Shown in pieces: positions 1,178 through 59,842 of a stretch of 64,000 bases of DNA. The DNA comes from an uncultured Acutalibacter sp. (GTDB taxonomy: Bacteria; Bacillota; Clostridia; Oscillospirales; Acutalibacteraceae), in the NCBI GenBank assembly GCA_964642055.1, contig CAZXLM010000002.1:3793-67792 (forward strand), given 5' to 3'. A program made the translations under genes and the position numbers. The notes beneath the pieces are model-generated. The model did not search any database and was not told the DNA's origin. It was given only the letters and a program-made list of their open reading frames with translations. How positions within the stretch are numbered: position 1 is the first letter of the stretch; the number at the start of each line of letters is the position of its first letter.

Positions 1178-2314
1178 ATGAAGGTTCTGATTCTCTCCTG
1201 CAATACGGGGCAGGGACACAACTCTGCCGGGCTGGCCGTGAAAGAAGAACTGGAACGCAGAAACATTCCCTGTGAAATGAAAGATGCCCTTTCCTTTGCC
1301 AAAGACCGCGCTTCCCGTACCATCAGCGGCGCGTATATCGGCATTGCCACCAGAAGTCCCGCCCTGTTCGGTGGAATTTACCGGCTGGGAAGCGCTATCA
1401 GCTCCAGCAGGCGAAAATCTCCGGTCTATTATGCCAACGCCCGATACGCGCAGCCCCTGAAAGCTTACATAGAGGAAACCGGCGTCACCGCGGTGGTAAC
1501 GCCGCACCTGTTCCCTGCTGAGACCTTGACCTGTCTGAAGCGCCGCGGTGAGCTTTCCGTTTCCACCTACGCCATCGCCACAGATTACACCTGCATTCCT
1601 TTCTGGGAGGAAACGGAGCTGGACGGTTACTTCATCCCCCACGAAGACCTGGCTCCCGAATTTGAAAAGAAGGGGATCCCTCAGGAAAAACTGATCTCCA
1701 CCGGTCTGCCGGTATCCAAGAGATTCAATTCCCATACAGATCAAGAGGAAGCCCGGCGCAAGCTGGGCCTTCCCGAGAACGCCCCGGTATTCCTTGTCAT
1801 GACGGGCAGCATGGGCTTTGGGGACATTTCTTCCTTTGCGCTGGATCTGCTGCTGACCTGTCCGAAGGCAGCCCAGATCGTGATCCTTACCGGCAACAAC
1901 GAGCCCCTGAAAGCCCGGATCGATAAGGACTTTGCCGGAGAGGCCCGGGTGCGCACCGTGCCCTTTACGCAGGAAGTCCCCCTGTACATGGACGCCTGCG
2001 ATGTGCTGCTCTCCAAGCCGGGTGGGCTTACCAGCACGGAGGCAGCCGTCAAAAACGTGCCGCTGATCCATACCCGGCCCATTCCCGGCTGCGAAACCTG
2101 CAACGCCCGGTTTTTCTCCTCCCGCGGTCTCTCCCTTTTTGCGGAGGATCCAAAGGAGGCGGCCAAAGCGGCGGCCCTACTGGCCGCAGACGAAACGCTG
2201 CGGCAGAGCATGCGCCGCCGCCAGCAGGAAGCGATCCCTGCCCGGGCCGCGGAGTCCATCGTTTCCTACCTTTTGGAGCACGAAAGAATCGGCGTCCCAC
2301 ATCAATCGGACTAA
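1178..2314 (+). CDS. Diacylglycerol glycosyltransferase (MGDG-synthase-like, GT28 family)
   Basis: N-terminus MKVLILSCNTGQGHNSAG is typical of processive diacylglycerol glycosyltransferases, and the C-terminal GT-B half contains SKPGGLTSTEA. An AAAGGA Shine-Dalgarno (SD) site precedes ATG 1178; ATG 1160 is an alternative start. Confidence 0.8.
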   Translation: MKVLILSCNTGQGHNSAGLAVKEELERRNIPCEMKDALSFAKDRASRTISGAYIGIATRSPALFGGIYRLGSAISSSRRKSPVYYANARYAQPLKAYIEETGVTAVVTPHLFPAETLTCLKRRGELSVSTYAIATDYTCIPFWEETELDGYFIPHEDLAPEFEKKGIPQEKLISTGLPVSKRFNSHTDQEEARRKLGLPENAPVFLVMTGSMGFGDISSFALDLLLTCPKAAQIVILTGNNEPLKARIDKDFAGEARVRTVPFTQEVPLYMDACDVLLSKPGGLTSTEAAVKNVPLIHTRPIPGCETCNARFFSSRGLSLFAEDPKEAAKAAALLAADETLRQSMRRRQQEAIPARAAESIVSYLLEHERIGVPHQSD

Positions 2315-2339
2315 AATCCGGCGAAAGGAGGCCCTTTTT

Positions 2340-2999
2340 ATGAATTTCCCCTATTGGCTCGGCGTGTTTCGGTATGTCGTCTACGCCTTTCTGGGCTTTT
2401 GTCTGGGCGGCGTGCTGTTCAGCTACCATCTGCCCAAGCTTCTAAAGGGTGTAGATGTTCGGGAAGCCAGTGAAGACCACAACCCCGGCACGGTAAACGC
2501 CTTTAAATATGCCGGCGTTTCCGTAGGTGTTTTGTGCCTGCTGTGCGACTTGTGCAAGGGATTCGTGCCCGTGTTTGCGGCCACGCATTTTCTGGATCCC
2601 TCGCGCCTGTGGTTCTCCATAGTCATCTGTGCCCCCGCCCTGGGCCATGCCATAGCCCCCTTGTACCGCCGGCAGGGTGGAAAGGCTATTGCGGCCACTT
2701 TCGGCGCTCTTCTCGGGCTGCTCCCCGGAAGTTTTTTGGTCTTTTTGCTGGCGGCGATCTACCTGTTTTTCTCCCTGGTCCGGGTGGTCAATCCCAATGA
2801 ACGCCGGACGGTAGTAACTTTCACGCTTTTTGCAGTCTTATCCCTGCTGTCCGCTTTTTACACCCATCGCTGGTCTTTTGCCTTGGGAACTGTGCTGCTG
2901 TCTGCTGTGGTCATTTTGAAAAATTATCGGGACGCAAAAATTCCTCTGCCTCAGCCGCCCGAGCAGGAGGAACCTCAGGTCAGCCGGCAAAATCCGTAG
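2340..2999 (+). CDS. plsY: Glycerol-3-phosphate acyltransferase PlsY
   Basis: Multi-TM protein with HNPGTVNAFK, DLCKGFVPV and GHAIAPLY..GGKAIAAT blocks. The start is taken at MNFPYW; the upstream part of the track ORF overlaps the previous gene. Confidence 0.85.
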   Translation: MNFPYWLGVFRYVVYAFLGFCLGGVLFSYHLPKLLKGVDVREASEDHNPGTVNAFKYAGVSVGVLCLLCDLCKGFVPVFAATHFLDPSRLWFSIVICAPALGHAIAPLYRRQGGKAIAATFGALLGLLPGSFLVFLLAAIYLFFSLVRVVNPNERRTVVTFTLFAVLSLLSAFYTHRWSFALGTVLLSAVVILKNYRDAKIPLPQPPEQEEPQVSRQNP

Positions 3000-3086
3000 T
3001 CATAACGTCTAAGGGCGCGTTTCAAAAGCATGGGATCTTCTCATCAAAAAGGGACTGCTGTAAGATCATTCTGCAGCAGTCCCTTT

Positions 3087-3932
3087 TCATGCGGGCAAAA
3101 CGGCCAGCGCCTGTTTCCCCAGCCCGCTATAGGCCCGCTCCACCGAAAACGCGGAATAGCGAACGTCCCGACCGGACAGCGGATCGTTGAAAAAATAGCC
3201 GCCGCTGTCCCAGCCTGTCAACAGCAGGCAGTGCATGGGATAGATCCACTGGAATTCCTCCCCGGTATCCTCCGTGAAAAAGATCACGTCGTCCTGGGGC
3301 TCTTCCATATCGATGGTGGCCCAAAGCAGAACCGGTACCCCGCTTGCCACATATTCCCCGCAAAGAGCTTCCAGACTTTCCCCCGACAGGTCTTTTACCG
3401 AGAGGAAGGATACCTCCCTCTCGCAGAGCAGCTGCTCCAAAGCCCGGAAAATTACCTGGCTGTAGCAGCCCCAGCCCAGTTTTGACCGAGGGTCCCCGGG
3501 GAATGCTTCCCGGGGATCACAGCCCACAAGCATTCCGTCCTGCTCATGAGGCGCGTTCCCCAAAGGGAGATATCCGTCGATAAATTCGTCTACGCCGATA
3601 TCCACGCCAAAATATTGCAGCGCCATGACCGTGCAGACGCTTTCACAGCCTGTGGGCCAGTTTTCCTCCTGGCTGATAAACGGGACTTCCAGCAGCATGG
3701 TTTCTTTTCCTCCGCGGGAGTCCGGATCCATTGCCCGTTGCGGGCCTGTCTCAAAAGCGCCTGTTCCATCTTCTGAAAACGCCCTTCCCCGAAGGAGTTT
3801 TCCAGAAGCAGACGGAGCGCTTCCCGTTTTCACCGTATGCGCAATGAGAGCTATCAGGCATAGAAAGCCCGCAAAAGCCATGAAATACGGTATGTATCCT
3901 TTTCTCCGTTTTTTCCGAATCCGGTTTTCCAT
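3087..3932 (-). CDS. Membrane-anchored C39-like cysteine peptidase domain protein (YvpB-like)
   Basis: N-terminal TM segment followed by PFISQEENWPTGCESVCTVMALQYFG (catalytic Cys context). A strong GGGGAGGA SD lies 8 nt before ATG 3932. Confidence 0.6.
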   Translation of the reverse strand: MENRIRKKRRKGYIPYFMAFAGFLCLIALIAHTVKTGSAPSASGKLLRGRAFSEDGTGAFETGPQRAMDPDSRGGKETMLLEVPFISQEENWPTGCESVCTVMALQYFGVDIGVDEFIDGYLPLGNAPHEQDGMLVGCDPREAFPGDPRSKLGWGCYSQVIFRALEQLLCEREVSFLSVKDLSGESLEALCGEYVASGVPVLLWATIDMEEPQDDVIFFTEDTGEEFQWIYPMHCLLLTGWDSGGYFFNDPLSGRDVRYSAFSVERAYSGLGKQALAVLPA

Positions 3933-42350: not shown

Positions 42351-42426
42351 GACTCATTAGCTCAGTTGGCAGAGCACTTGACTTTTAATCAAGGTGTCCG
42401 GGGTTCGAATCCCCGATGGGTCACCA
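42351..42426 (+). tRNA. tRNA-Lys (anticodon UUU), CCA encoded
   Basis: Acceptor stem GACTCAT/ATGGGTC, D-arm AGCTCAGTTGGCAGAGC, anticodon loop CTTTTAA, T-arm GGGGTTCGAATCCCC, 3' CCA. Confidence 0.9.
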
Positions 42427-55947: not shown

Positions 55948-57018
55948 TTATGATTCTTTCGGCGCTTCGCCTGCCGAAGGTGATGGGGAAGGAAAGAAAT
56001 GATTTTTCGGTATCTCTTCCCGATACGCCTGCGTCCGGCTCCACTCCTTGGTGGCGTCGTCCCGCCGGACCTCGCTCTGGCGGCGCTGAAGCAGGCAGCA
56101 CAAAGCGTATACGTCCACCCATATTTCGCTGGGGCCTTCCTTTTGAGATTCATCGAAAATCAGCTGCAAGCCGTAATGCAGATGGCTGACATTGATATTG
56201 TTGGTGTTTTCCTTTGTGCTGTAGCCCGTTCTTCCCACATAGCCGATGACGTCTCCCGCCATGACAGTCTGGCCCGTCTCAAGGCCTTGGGCATAGGGCC
56301 GGTTCTGCCGGAGGTGAGCGTAATAGTGATACCGTTTCCCGTCAAAGCTGCGGATCCCAATGCGCCAGCCGCCGTACTGGTTCCACCCCAAGGCCTCCAC
56401 CACCCCGGATTCCACGGCGATGACCGGCGTGCCTACGGCGGCCATCATGTCGTGGCCCAGGTGCTTTCTCTTGTAGCCGTAACTGCGGCCAGCCCCGAAA
56501 TCATCGTAATCGCTGTAGGGAAAGGTTTTGGCAATGGGGGAATATCCCTTCAGGCCGTACCGCTTTTCCCAGCCGTTTTCCGTTTCAAGCTCATACTCGC
56601 CCACCAGGTTTCCCAGCACAGCGCCGTAGGCCTCCCGGTAGTATCCGTAATACTTCATGTCCTGCGCAAGAGAAGTTATATCCTCTCCGCTTTCAACTTT
56701 TTGGGCCAGGTCGTTTAAATCCTTTCGCTGATACAGGGAAAAGTCCCCGCCGTATTTCGCGCCCAGATAGGCAAGACATTCGACCCAGTCGAGATGGGAC
56801 CGGCCGGGGTCCTCATAGGTTTCCAGGTCCAGGTCAAGAGCCGCTTCAAGCAGGCTTTCGGGAACATTGAAGTCCACCCATTTGATATAATCCTTCCGCT
56901 CGGGCTCCGCGTCTGCCGGCAGGGCCCCTTTCAGCACAGGAAAAACGGCAGCCAGCAAAAGGCCGGCTGTCAGCGCAAAAAGCAAAACTTTTTTGCGGAT
57001 CCGAAGGGTCAGAAACAT
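55948..57018 (-). CDS. M23 family metallopeptidase
   Basis: HLGHDMMAAVGTPV ... SHLHYGLQ motifs, with an N-terminal anchor. Confidence 0.8.
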   Translation of the reverse strand: MFLTLRIRKKVLLFALTAGLLLAAVFPVLKGALPADAEPERKDYIKWVDFNVPESLLEAALDLDLETYEDPGRSHLDWVECLAYLGAKYGGDFSLYQRKDLNDLAQKVESGEDITSLAQDMKYYGYYREAYGAVLGNLVGEYELETENGWEKRYGLKGYSPIAKTFPYSDYDDFGAGRSYGYKRKHLGHDMMAAVGTPVIAVESGVVEALGWNQYGGWRIGIRSFDGKRYHYYAHLRQNRPYAQGLETGQTVMAGDVIGYVGRTGYSTKENTNNINVSHLHYGLQLIFDESQKEGPSEIWVDVYALCCLLQRRQSEVRRDDATKEWSRTQAYREEIPKNHFFPSPSPSAGEAPKES

Positions 57019-57142
57019 GGAAAATCACCCGGTTTTATGCTATGCCGGGAGAAACCTTTTTTAGAACAGGCGAGCCGCGAAATCCAAACGCGGAACTGCC
57101 ACGGCGAAAGGCATGGCGCCGCGCATCTTTACCTGGGACAGC

Positions 57143-57172
57143 AAAAAAGCTCCCCTTGAAAACAAGGGGAGC
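57143..57172 (-). terminator. Intrinsic terminator after the XRE gene
   Basis: Minus-strand GCTCCCCTTG-TTTT-CAAGGGGAGC followed by TTTTTT. Confidence 0.75.
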
Positions 57173-57193
57173 CCAGCTTGTGAGCCAAAATTA

Positions 57194-57508
57194 TCAGGAA
57201 TCCTTTTTCGCATCCTGGGAACGCTTCCGCACTCTTTTGGTCTCCGGGTGCAGATCGGCTATGGCGCCCGGGACAAAAAACACATCGGGAGAGACGCCGT
57301 AAAACTGCGAAAGCCTGTACAGCGTAGAAGAGCTGGGCGACGTGGTCCCCAGCTCGTAGTAGGTGTATGCAGGGCGCGATATTCCCAGGAAATCTGCCAC
57401 GGCTTCCTGGGTCAGGCCCCGGTTCACCCGCAGGGCCTTCAGGGCCGTGCGCACCTGCAGAGACATCTCTTTTTCGGAATGTGTTTCTTTTCCCTTTGAC
57501 CTTGCCAC
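57194..57508 (-). CDS. XRE-family HTH transcriptional regulator
   Basis: LRVNRGLTQEAVADFLGISRPAYTYYELG is an HTH. GTG 57508 has a GGAGGG SD 7 nt upstream; ATG 57466 is an alternative start. There is no room for its own promoter, because RNA cassette A's terminator ends 7 nt before the SD. Confidence 0.75.
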   Translation of the reverse strand: MARSKGKETHSEKEMSLQVRTALKALRVNRGLTQEAVADFLGISRPAYTYYELGTTSPSSSTLYRLSQFYGVSPDVFFVPGAIADLHPETKRVRKRSQDAKKDS

Positions 57509-57527
57509 AGCGATTCCCTCCAAAAAC

Positions 57528-57690
57528 AAAAAAGTGCGCAGCCGAAGCCGCGCACCGAAAAACGCACGGCTCCTCTGGTTACCACGCCAAGTTTTCGATA
57601 CAACACAGGTATGCGAAAAATGAAGCCTGCATTTTTACCAAAAAGGTAAAATGCACACCTGTGTCTATCAATATTCACTTGACGTGGTAG
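57528..57690 (-). ncRNA. Structured RNA cassette A (about 163 nt), unclassified; also the only possible 5' leader of the XRE gene
   Basis: Promoter TTGAAA (57723-57718), 17-nt spacer, TGaTAAGAT (-10 at 57700-57695). Stems: P1 UACCACGUCAAGU/ACUUGGCGUGGUA, P2 ACACAGGUGUGC/GCAUACCUGUGU, P3 AUUUUACC/GGUAAAAAU. Terminator GUGCGCGGC-UUCG-GCUGCGCAC plus U6 (57555-57528). Confidence 0.7.
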
Positions 57691-57810
57691 TTTCATCTTA
57701 TCATTAATTTCACATTTTTTCAAGGGTCAAGTAATATTCCCCATAAAAATGGCCTGAGCCTACCTTCTATCGAAAACCGGGCGGCTTTTCTATGACAAAC
57801 TTCCCCAAAC

Positions 57811-57978
57811 AAAAAAGTGCGCAGCCGAAGCCACGCACCGAAAAACGCATGGCTCCATTGCTGCGACACAATTCTTTTTTGCAGTTCATTTAACGCACAA
57901 AAAAGCAGAGCCTGCATTTTTACCCATAGGGTAAAATGTGCGTTAATGAACTTAAATATACTTATTGAATTGTGCCGC
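57811..57978 (-). ncRNA. Structured RNA cassette B (about 168 nt), unclassified
   Basis: Promoter TTTACT (58013-58008), 17-nt spacer, TGgTATTGT (-10 at 57990-57985). Stems: P1 GCGGCACAAUUC/GAAUUGUGUCGC, P2 AGUUCAUUAACGCAC/GUGCGUUAAAUGAACU, P3 AUUUUACCC/GGGUAAAAAU. UUCG-loop terminator plus U6 (57838-57811). Confidence 0.7.
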
Positions 57979-58025
57979 AAATTTACAATACCATATTTGA
58001 CCTGAAAAGTAAAGCGCTCCAAAAC

Positions 58026-58191
58026 AAAAAAGTGCGCAGCCGAGGCCGCGCACCGAAAAACGCACGGCTCCATTGCTGCGACACAATCACTTTTGGCAGT
58101 TGCTATACTGTATGCAAAAGTTTGAGCCTGCATTTTTACCAAAGCAAAAATGCACACAGTATAGTATCCCACCCATATTCGATTGTGTCGC
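58026..58191 (-). ncRNA. Structured RNA cassette C (about 166 nt), unclassified
   Basis: Promoter identical to B (-35 at 58226-58221, -10 at 58203-58198). Stems: P1 GCGACACAAUC/GAUUGUGUCGC, P2 CUAUACUGUGUGC/GCAUACAGUAUAG, P3 AUUUUUGC/GUAAAAAU. Terminator hairpin plus U6 (58053-58026). Confidence 0.7.
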
Positions 58192-58245
58192 AAATTTACA
58201 ATACCATATTTGACCTGAAAAGTAAAGTATAATAAACAAAAACGC

Positions 58246-58550
58246 AAAAAATCTGTCCCAGCTTGGGACAGATTCAAAGCAGAAAGAAGTACATTCTCTT
58301 TGCGAAAAGCAGAAAAAGCTGTTATGATAGCATCGTGCAGAAATGCACAGAAAGGTCTGCCATAACGGTAGGCGGTTTGGCTACACCACCCGAAAGGGGG
58401 TGATGCCATGCGAGTTACGTTACATACCGGGCCTTTTACGGTTACGATTCTTGTAAAACGCAGAAACCGCCACTCGGCCAAGTGACGGTTTCTTTGAAAA
58501 AATAAAGAAACTCAACTGAGCCAAACCGTCTATCGGCAGACCCTTTCTTT
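58246..58550 (-). ncRNA. Structured RNA D (about 305 nt), unclassified
   Basis: Starts about 7 nt after a consensus promoter. A ~30-bp closing helix joins 58548-58519 with 58382-58349, enclosing several hairpins. It ends at the AUCUGUCCCA-AGC-UGGGACAGAU plus U-run terminator (58273-58246). No conserved or SD-preceded ORF is present. Confidence 0.65.
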
Positions 58551-58556
58551 ATTTTT

Positions 58557-58585
58557 ATTATAATGGCTGCCTTGCGATTTGTCAA
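58557..58585 (-). promoter_or_regulatory. Perfect consensus sigma-A promoter driving RNA D
   Basis: Minus strand reads TTGACA (58585-58580), an exactly 17-nt spacer, then TATAAT (58562-58557). Confidence 0.75.
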
Positions 58586-58641
58586 GCGCAGGTCTGCTGT
58601 TGAAAACCGTCCCAACTTGGGACAGATTCAAAGCGAAAAGG

Positions 58642-58673
58642 AAAAAAGCCTCCCCTTGATTTTCAAGGGGAGG
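58642..58673 (-). terminator. Intrinsic terminator of the ATP-grasp gene
   Basis: Minus-strand CCTCCCCTTG-AAAAT-CAAGGGGAGG followed by CTTTTTT. Confidence 0.75.
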
Positions 58674-58801
58674 TGGCATGGCGTAAGCCATGACGGAGGG
58701 ATTGTTTGAAACGGCAGGAACTTCTGAGCAAGCCTTAACACGTCAATCCCTCAACCTGCTATGCAGGCAGTTTCTGCCGCTCATCTTCTCCACCAGCAGG
58801 A

Positions 58802-59842
58802 CTACAGCTCCGGGATAAGCTTTTTATAGGTGGGCCATAAACCGATGCGGTCCGGCGTATGTTCAGGCTGCTGCCAGAAATCGTAGCCGGGATAATCGTT
58901 GCCCTCAATGATGGCCGGGCCGGTGGGAGTAATGGCACAGTCCCAGCCTACAAAGCGCATGCCCGGTTCTTCCAGAGCCGCTTTTTTGCAAAGCTCAATG
59001 GCCTCTTTTACATAGGGGATCCGATAACCCATCAGCTCTATGCCGGTCTCCGGGTGATGGGTCAGCGTAGTCAGGGCAGAGGTGTGCCCCACGCCGGTAA
59101 TTTCTCCGGTTTCATAATCAATCGGGCAGAACATGCCGCCGTTTTCCAGATTATCCACATATTTACCACCGGCGCCTATTTTTACCACAGCGTAAATGAG
59201 CTGCGGCTCCCAATGCTCTGGGGAACCTGTGAGCAAGGTGACGATGCGCAAAGTATTCACCGCGCTGGGATAAAGCCTGCTCATGGCTTCGTGCTGAATG
59301 ATCATTTCCCCGATCACGCCAAAGCCCTGGGCTTTGATATAGCGATACATTTCCTCCACGCTTTCAAAATCCGCCTTTTTGAGTCTCTCGATCCCCTTAC
59401 CGCTTTCCCCCACGTCCGGCTTTGCGAAAATGCGCTCCTTGTCTTTTACAAATTCGGTAAACTGTTCCAGGGTCATTTCATCTACCACTAGAAAATCCCG
59501 GCCCAGGTAGTCTCGAAAACGGGGGTTAAATTTTGTCTTGTGGTCGAATATTTCCGCCGTTTCCGGATCGTTCAGCAGAGTGATCATCTTTTTGTTGCGG
59601 ACCCGGGTCACATAAGTATCTCGATGTTTGCCGTCCATATTGTAAAATCCGAACATGACATAATCGTGGTAACCCGCGCCATATCGAACGGAACACCATA
59701 GCATATCCAAAAAAATACCGGCCCTGCTTCTGCCGGAGCGTTCCTTCGCCCTGCCAATAGAGCGAGACAATTCTTCCAGACGTACGCCACTGAGGACTCT
59801 CCCGAGGTAACCCACCCGGGAGAGCAAATTCATCTTTTTCAT
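58802..59842 (-). CDS. ATP-grasp protein of the sugar-transfer-associated (ATPgrasp_ST-like) family
   Basis: Size and blocks (FAKPDVGESGKGIE, NTLRIVT, VGWDCAITPTGPAIIEGN) match the family usually found in capsule or glycopolymer loci; assignment from memory. Confidence 0.65.
   Translation of the reverse strand: MKKMNLLSRVGYLGRVLSGVRLEELSRSIGRAKERSGRSRAGIFLDMLWCSVRYGAGYHDYVMFGFYNMDGKHRDTYVTRVRNKKMITLLNDPETAEIFDHKTKFNPRFRDYLGRDFLVVDEMTLEQFTEFVKDKERIFAKPDVGESGKGIERLKKADFESVEEMYRYIKAQGFGVIGEMIIQHEAMSRLYPSAVNTLRIVTLLTGSPEHWEPQLIYAVVKIGAGGKYVDNLENGGMFCPIDYETGEITGVGHTSALTTLTHHPETGIELMGYRIPYVKEAIELCKKAALEEPGMRFVGWDCAITPTGPAIIEGNDYPGYDFWQQPEHTPDRIGLWPTYKKLIPEL

Follow-up and report, generated by a model that had tools for sequence, protein, structure and literature searches.

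Terminator-bearing 5′ leaders stand before surface-protein, adhesin and regulator genes in Clostridia and their phages, where cyclic di-GMP (c-di-GMP) riboswitches of the GEMM-I/II classes occur, sometimes in tandem. In C. difficile, DNA inversion decides whether the leader terminator upstream of a surface-protein gene, cwpV, forms (the Cdi1 switch). In pseudoknot riboswitches such as ZTP/pfl, preQ1-II, SAM-II and fluoride, a 3′ tail has two alternative partners, an internal single-stranded block and the 5′ arm of an intrinsic terminator placed directly before the Shine–Dalgarno sequence (SD) and open reading frame (ORF). Here we describe an array of three head-to-tail RNA units (C, B and A) on the minus strand of a 64,000-nucleotide stretch of contig CAZXLM010000002.1 from an uncultured Acutalibacter sp., hereafter the window; the array lies between an ATP-grasp gene (58802–59842) and an XRE/HTH_3 gene (57194–57508). 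The units belong to an undescribed family of leader RNAs that is common in human-gut Clostridia and in their predicted phage contigs. At a probability of roughly 0.7, we read each unit as a self-promoted 5′ leader that attenuates transcription through a terminator/antiterminator switch of the riboswitch-like kind.

The original prediction, made from the window alone, placed three tandem minus-strand units of about 165 nt correctly: unit C at 58026–58195, unit B at 57811–57982 and unit A at 57528–57691, each beginning a few bases past an extended −10 promoter. Every unit folds into one long hairpin composed of P1 (12–14 bp), P2 (13–19 bp) and an A+U-rich apical P3. A 5′-side bulge containing AAUA(U) separates P1 from P2, and a 3′-side bulge (AGGCUCU...) sits between P3 and the 3′ arm of P2. 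The minimum free energies (MFEs) are −73.5, −68.9 and −73.1 kcal/mol for A, B and C, with z = −8.0, −6.9 and −6.7 against dinucleotide shuffles, and in each case 0 of 200 shuffles reached the energy of the native fold. The P1 and P2 arms quoted in the prediction are correct and pair as proposed, with only G-U wobbles and one bulge. Its contrast between conserved blocks and variable stems also holds: GGUAAAAAUGCAGGCU, GGAGCC(G/A)UGCGUUUUUCG and the terminator are identical across A, B and C, whereas P1 and P2 are almost wholly different between A and B/C, and P2 also differs between B and C. The window contains exactly three copies of the conserved 16-mer, compared with 0.66 occurrences expected at up to three mismatches.

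In unit C (137 bits against the covariance model described below), P1 is formed by 58181–58191 and 58078–58088 and P2 by 58152–58164 and 58103–58115; the P3 5′ arm occupies 58144–58151, the P3 3′ arm and core 58123–58140, the tail 58056–58071 and the terminator 58021–58054. Unit B (143.7 bits) has P1 at 57967–57978 and 57863–57874, the P1/P2 junction J1/2 at 57953–57966, P2 at 57938–57952 and 57883–57898, the P3 5′ arm at 57929–57937, the core at 57907–57925, the tail at 57841–57856 and the terminator at 57807–57839. In unit A (141.4 bits), the same elements lie at 57677–57689 and 57580–57592 (P1), 57672–57676 (J1/2), 57653–57671 and 57595–57614 (P2), 57645–57652 (P3 5′ arm), 57622–57639 (core), 57558–57573 (tail) and 57522–57556 (terminator). 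A terminator scan found a 10-bp G+C-rich hairpin followed by a U-tract in each of the three.

The promoters of units C (58198–58226) and B (57985–58013) combine a −35 TTTACT (58221–58226 and 58008–58013, respectively) with the extended −10 TGGTATTGT (58198–58206 and 57985–57993), and a 52-nt repeat around the unit B promoter is common to both units. The promoter of unit A (57695–57723) reads TTGAAA-17-TAAGAT with TG before the −10, the full −10 element being TGATAAGAT. It was called by the promoter scan; the extended −10 elements of B and C were not scored by the scan and were read from the sequence. As the prediction proposed, unit A is the leader of the XRE gene (57194–57521 including the SD): the GTG start at 57508 lies 19 nt past the unit A U-tract and is preceded by the SD GGAGGG (57516–57521), the stop is at 57194–57196, and the product matches HTH_3 (PF01381, E = 5e-17). 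Units B and C are orphan copies, again as proposed; an SD-like GGAG or GGGGAAG follows their terminators, yet no ORF lies behind either.

With Rfam 15 at gathering thresholds, no family matched the three units, and a permissive scan (E up to 10) of 56900–58900 returned nothing below E = 0.25 and no relevant architecture. The sole gathering-threshold match in the 64-kb window is a tRNA gene at 42351–42423 on the plus strand. Rfam matched one tRNA and no other family in 14 homolog loci, and a full-text literature search found nothing for the core sequence or for related motif descriptions. A two-block pattern gave 59 matches among GTDB species representatives, 14 of them true copies confined to Oscillospiraceae, Ruminococcaceae, Acutalibacteraceae, Dysosmobacter, Faecousia or Neopoerus; the others were rejected as chance, for example one inside the trpS coding sequence. 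Against a covariance model built from 17 sequences, these GTDB copies score 106–156 bits. The model also recognized as members 9 of the 26 IMG/VR contigs that contain the 16-mer, and both unannotated gut ‘Bacteriophage sp.’ records found among GenBank phages are true members. A metagenome pattern scan added at least 120 loci, about 105 of them true members and mostly from human gut. The combined yield of the pattern and model searches is at least 129 matches, representing 74 distinct sequences. GenBank plasmids gave no match to the element, the tail pattern GGAGCCRTGCGTTTTTCGG gave none in IMG/VR, and two weak second matches of the model (L025 2165–2315 and L010 7980–8130) were judged non-members. 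Full copies in tandem were found at only two of the loci examined, the window with three and L118 with two.

The fold is preserved across this family. In a model-based alignment of the 74 distinct sequences (A3), in which P1, the top of P2, P3, the bulge–tail pseudoknot and the terminator were scored together, 93.5% of paired cells can pair, compared with 85.4% in shuffles and at most 52% with the partner slid, and both sides have changed in 33 of 44 pairs. The terminator is 98% paired, with double changes at all nine pairs. The compensated stems claimed from the window's three copies thus recur among the homologs. Lower P2 is unrelated between copies and was left out of the alignment; it was tested by the pairing of cognate halves instead. 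Cognate 5′ and 3′ halves pair with a median of −37 kcal/mol, compared with −17 ± 6.6 kcal/mol for non-cognate halves, and nearly all 5′ halves pair best with the 3′ half of the same copy. P1/P2 pairing is lacking in a hybrid lineage discussed below. Family-wide, P1 spans 13–16 bp and P2 12–21 bp, of similar lengths, flanking an asymmetric AAUAU bulge, whose 5′ side has 3–9 nt, in most cases with AAUA among them, and whose opposite side has 0–3 nt. P3 is an 11-N(3–7)-11 inverted repeat with a loop of 3 to 7 nt. Across family members, 390 G-U pairs stand against 31 A-C pairs, which means that the fold exists only on the strand running from promoter to terminator.

A second layer of pairing connects the conserved blocks. 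The bulge hexamer that follows AAAAAUGCA is complementary to the first hexamer of the tail, and the two vary together: GGCUCU bulges occur with tails GGAGCC, GGAGCU, AGGGCU, GGGGCU or GGAGUC, GGCUUC with GAAGCU, GAGGUC or GAGGCC, GGCUUU with AAAGCU, and GGCUCA with UGAGCC or UGAGCU. This pseudoknot is 96% paired, with compensatory changes from C-G to U-A (C-G 53 / U-A 16) and from U-G to A-U or C-G (U-G 44 / U-A 14 / C-G 6 / A-U 5). The tail extension (A)UGCGUUUUU repeats the P3 5′ arm and is able to pair with AAAAAUGCA in the 3′ arm of P3, giving a full core:tail helix of about 15 bp that is 96.1% paired; its 5′ partner was fixed by the search patterns, so double changes are invisible there, and the extended helix can be called compatible with the covariation. 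Double changes within the core are observable only in L118 copy 2, L216, L217 and L218. The tail can also form 11 bp with the terminator 5′ arm (90.8% paired, double changes in 5 of 11 pairs), as seen at pair 229:260 (U-A 31 / C-G 19 / U-G 12) and in the partners GGAGCU with GUAGCUUC, GGGGCU with GUAGCCCC and AAAGCUAUGUA with UGCGUAGCUU.

A divergent member retrieved by a pattern without a fixed core (L218 2965–3123, also L219 and L225) extends this observation. Its P3 arms are AAUGCUUU and AAAGCGUU, its bulge UCUCUC, its tail GAGAGAGCCGCUUUUU and its terminator arm GUGCGUCUCUUC; bulge (UCUCUC), tail (GAGAGA..CGCUUUUU) and terminator arm (GUCUCUUC) are all altered in step, a three-way compensation. 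About 100 nt downstream in L218, the next ORF is directly preceded by a 3′ portion of a second leader (AGTTGTGTGGCAGCAATGCGGAAG...).

Both complementarities had been noticed in the window, and both are borne out energetically. In the three units, the core:tail helix is worth −19 to −20.5 kcal/mol, the pairing of the tail with the terminator arm −16.6 to −20.6, the terminator −16 to −20 and P3 −8 to −10 kcal/mol, so that the competing helices are nearly isoenergetic. The MFE fold of B contains the antiterminator (the tail paired with the terminator 5′ arm) and those of A and C the terminator. An anti-antiterminator/antiterminator/terminator relay, as originally proposed, is well supported at the level of alternative pairing by covariation of the 74 distinct homologs.

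We propose that the relay involves five segments: the P3 5′ arm (GCAUUUUUACC, segment 1), the core, that is, the P3 3′ arm with the bulge (GGUAAAAAUGCA-GGCUCU, segment 2), the tail (GGAGCC-A-UGCGUUUUU, segment 3) and the 5′ (UGCGUGGCUUC) and 3′ arms of the terminator (segments 4 and 5). Pairing of the tail with the terminator 5′ arm (3:4) would block the terminator and let RNA polymerase read into the downstream gene. If the core instead captures the tail (2:3), the terminator (4:5) would form and an RNA of about 165 nt would be released; we infer this direction of the switch. Capture of the tail would begin at the single-stranded GGCUCU bulge and could spread into P3 by strand displacement. 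The copy-specific P1–P2 hairpin would hold the core and, together with the conserved 5′-side AAUAU bulge, probably sets the access of the tail to it. A fold-back at this asymmetric bulge would put the tail beside the core, and the bulge would be a natural site of action for a putative effector (a small molecule, a protein or an RNA) that biases the choice between 2:3 and 3:4. In the window, unit A would control the XRE gene, with C and B as upstream copies in series that end in terminators; these two may act as successive checkpoints on transcription towards XRE, serve as effector decoys, or be remnants of cassettes that were deleted. A NusG pause motif was considered in GUUUUUCG; the pause consensus is TTNTTT, which is not matched exactly, and we make no claim for one.

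Several observations weigh against this reading. The tail begins only 3–7 nt past P1 and the bulge is about 30 bp away, a distance at which the predicted pseudoknot would require the fold-back. Some members carry a mismatch in the pseudoknot (GGCCCU with GGAGCU), and an abundant hybrid lineage without P1/P2 pairing persists. Nearly all homologs were found with patterns that fix GGTAAAAATGCAGG, and core conservation is therefore overstated. About 13 of 73 other members, like units B and C, lack an ORF within 300 nt and could be stand-alone RNAs. Finally, both the effector and a conditional read-through are putative.

The ORF-less members bring up the alternative that survives best, namely that the units are independent genes for trans-acting small RNAs (sRNAs) in a tandem paralog cluster, with core and tail serving as an mRNA seed or protein site and the downstream genes being incidental. 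Every unit does have its own promoter and a strong terminator, and core and tail are conserved across paralogs and mutually complementary, such that terminated RNAs could act in trans on nascent leaders. The positions of the downstream genes argue against it. An extended −10 lies just upstream of 67 of 73 family members, and 28 of the 73 are followed by an SD and the start of an ORF of at least 60 aa no more than 40 nt past the U-tract, often at 17–22 nt; in 24 further members the ORF starts 41–150 nt past it. A promoter cannot fit into a spacing of 17–22 nt, and transcription of those genes must therefore pass through the terminator. This favours an attenuator acting in cis over a free sRNA. 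In most loci the downstream gene is on the same strand, and a covarying antiterminator that competes with the terminator would serve no purpose in a plain sRNA gene. We therefore consider the sRNA alternative unlikely. The original prediction had left the choice between a cis element and trans-acting sRNAs open; the cis element stood, and for most members, whose ORFs are too close, trans action became the less likely option. Its suggestion that variable stems speak against a metabolite aptamer is one we do not accept; variable stems do not argue so, and the leaders may sense a metabolite.

The genes behind the leaders are of many kinds, mostly encoding surface proteins. They include dockerin plus Ig-like proteins, BspA-type leucine-rich-repeat proteins, an SLH/transglutaminase protein, a PASTA lipoprotein and other lipoproteins, zinc-ribbon membrane proteins, an extracytoplasmic function (ECF)-sigma fusion of about 555 aa, and XRE proteins in the window and in L088. 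The family is thus not tied to XRE, and no recurring neighbour gene that would name an effector was found in the loci examined.

A DNA-level explanation, in which the units are recombination sites (att, attC-like or an invertible switch) or repeats resembling miniature inverted-repeat transposable elements (MITEs) and the RNA fold is a by-product, fares considerably worse, and we regard it as very unlikely. It would draw on integrase or recombinase genes near several copies (L010, L024, L037, L071 and L091, the last from Neopoerus faecalis CMD_1836), on the true members among the IMG/VR matches (9/26), on P3 being an 11-N(3–7)-11 inverted repeat, and on natural hybrids joined at the conserved core. 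The strand-specific fold (G-U 390 versus A-C 31) excludes that the stems are a cruciform, a MITE or an operator, and the covariation of pseudoknot and antiterminator reaches sequences outside the palindrome. The stems are private to each copy, unlike MITE copies, which are near-identical throughout and flanked by terminal inverted repeats and target duplications; a mobile repeat of the MITE or repetitive extragenic palindromic type was rejected because only loops, tail and terminator are common to the copies. An integrase att site as the primary explanation was likewise rejected, as the P3 loop varies in sequence and in length (3–7 nt), unlike a recombinase crossover region, and the hybrids fit homologous exchange. 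In integron attC sites, the R′′/R′ boxes follow RYYYAAC ... GTTRRRY, the cassettes lack promoters and an IntI gene is linked. This identity was rejected too: the P1 arms are GCGACACAA and TTGTGTCGC, each unit has a promoter and a terminator, and no integrase lies within about 10 kb of the window array or anywhere in 44–64 kb of the window. An invertible phase-variation switch was also rejected on the sequences scanned: the pattern for an inverted core followed by the tail had a single chance match in IMG/VR and was absent from the 226 other fetched loci, and no inverted-orientation variant was seen in either set.

The hybrids themselves deserve attention. The most abundant metagenomic form (L109, L116, L004, L021, L173 and others; more than 30 contigs with 12 sequence variants) combines a 5′ half, X, with the 3′ half of the L104 type, which is itself intact (X-Y′). 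Its P1/P2 pairing is broken (−8.4 kcal/mol), it lies upstream of the ECF-sigma fusion gene, and none of the recovered sequences carries the 3′ half cognate to X. Two further hybrids combine X with the 3′ half of the L102 type (L215) and the L096 5′ half with the L157 3′ half (L187). When alleles are aligned, the 3′ half moves with the downstream gene and the 5′ half with the promoter, and the breakpoints fall within the identical core and promoter blocks. We read the hybrids as products not of site-specific recombination but of homologous exchange between alleles or paralogs, at the ~30-nt identical core and at the promoter. Their predicted fold combines core:tail with the terminator, which would lock the switch in termination.

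Two of the loci with recombinase genes are described here for their gene order. In L010 (IMG/VR, oriented), a tyrosine integrase gene (int, 6–716) and a tRNA gene (991–1064) precede the leader (1427–1587) and a lipoprotein gene (1786–2565), an arrangement that looks like the edge of an integrated element. In L071 (~1326–3414, oriented), a large serine recombinase gene and then a C-terminal sigma-factor fragment lie directly upstream of the leader copy; we take this to resemble a sigK gene interrupted by a skin-like element.

Protein coding, whether by the mechanical 253-aa ORF at 57720–58481 (minus strand) or by peptides from the conserved core AUG, can be dismissed as practically negligible: an open frame does span C and B and the AUG is conserved in AAAAAUGCAGG, but the ORF is an artefact that crosses two promoters and two terminators with repeats mirroring those of the RNA, all three frames are interrupted by stops in 49 of 74 members, the core-AUG peptides of A, B and C are unlike in length and sequence, and substitutions keep base pairs rather than codons.

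Beside the array, just upstream of unit C, another candidate RNA of about 300 nt, unrelated to the units, occupies 58243–58585 on the minus strand. It has a perfect TTGACA-17-TATAAT promoter (58557–58585), an intrinsic terminator (58246–58275) and a predicted fold in which a long closing stem surrounds three hairpins (MFE −118.5 kcal/mol, z = −7.0). It had no Rfam match, and no similar DNA was present in any fetched locus. The 253-aa ORF runs through C and B into this RNA, and annotation pipelines could miscall it as a gene. Near-duplicate terminator-like hairpins flank the ~300-nt RNA (58249–58286 and 58603–58640), and a further pair (57147–57174 and 58649–58673) flanks the entire 1.5-kb block that comprises the RNAs and XRE; the two duplicated pairs suggest modular insertion or duplication. 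Exact-protein look-ups gave no record for three start variants of the XRE protein or for the M23 peptidase. Those for the ATP-grasp protein returned only short Logan contigs, which are uninformative because all stop about 130 nt past the gene, near window position 58671, at the duplicated terminator.

Oscillospiraceae and Ruminococcaceae make up a major and experimentally poorly tractable part of the human gut community, and to our knowledge almost nothing is known about the control of their surface and dockerin proteins and ECF-sigma regulators. One strongly covarying leader before many such genes, and on predicted phage contigs, represents a candidate regulon and a candidate signal that is open to ligand or protein screens on the 165-nt RNA. 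Its absence from Rfam means that genome annotation misses it and that spurious ORFs, such as the 253-aa ORF, are possible. The nearly isoenergetic helices, the single-stranded toehold beside an invadable helix and the copy-specific stems may also be of use in RNA engineering. A broader proposal, which we offer tentatively and hold to be possible rather than probable, is that the family constitutes a new riboswitch class, or a leader class that a dedicated factor senses. The family would control surface, cellulosome-type and regulator genes as one regulon in abundant human-gut Oscillospiraceae/Ruminococcaceae and their prophages through toehold-style tail capture across a hinged hairpin; ORF-less tandem copies would be checkpoints or decoys, and recombination at the core would create broken-hairpin hybrids that lock the switch, a form of heritable phase variation.

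Like the LhrC1–4 and Qrr1–5 clusters of sRNA paralogs, the leaders can be arranged head to tail, each copy with its own promoter and terminator and with common single-stranded motifs; unlike them, most members directly precede an ORF, and tandem arrays were seen only in the window and L118 among the loci examined. As in the cwpV switch, an inverted-repeat-rich terminator leader stands on a cell-surface gene, and hybrid variants would alter the leader fold heritably; the differences are that no inverted variants were found (IMG/VR and 226 loci), that pairing is G-U-rich and RNA-specific, and that the window has no linked recombinase.

With trp-type attenuators and the PyrR, LicT/RAT, ANTAR and LoaP leaders, the units share a relay of mutually exclusive helices ending in an intrinsic terminator, and, as in protein-dependent antitermination, the same leader stands before many unlinked genes, as expected of a regulon under one trans factor. 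In contrast to trp-type attenuators, the 74 members have no conserved leader peptide in a frame check, and, unlike in protein-dependent systems, no recurring partner-protein gene lies near the leaders in the loci examined. The leader is not known to contain a RAT, ANTAR two-hexaloop or PyrR motif.

Pseudoknot riboswitches resemble the units in being self-promoted 5′ leaders with a conserved structured domain, in the alternative partners of their 3′ tail, in the terminator directly before the SD and ORF, and in stems that covary while loops and bulges are conserved. The leaders differ from them in matching no Rfam class by sequence or model, in their very long, nearly perfect and length-variable helices, in a tail that can also invade P3, and in preceding heterogeneous surface and regulator genes rather than a metabolic pathway. 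GEMM-I/II riboswitches have another architecture and other conserved nucleotides, and neither RF01051 nor RF01786 matched even at E up to 10. They nevertheless share with our leaders the terminator, the kinds of genes controlled, the presence on phages and the occasional tandem arrangement, and by this analogy the c-di-GMP riboswitches of Clostridia and their phages would be the nearest analog by function.

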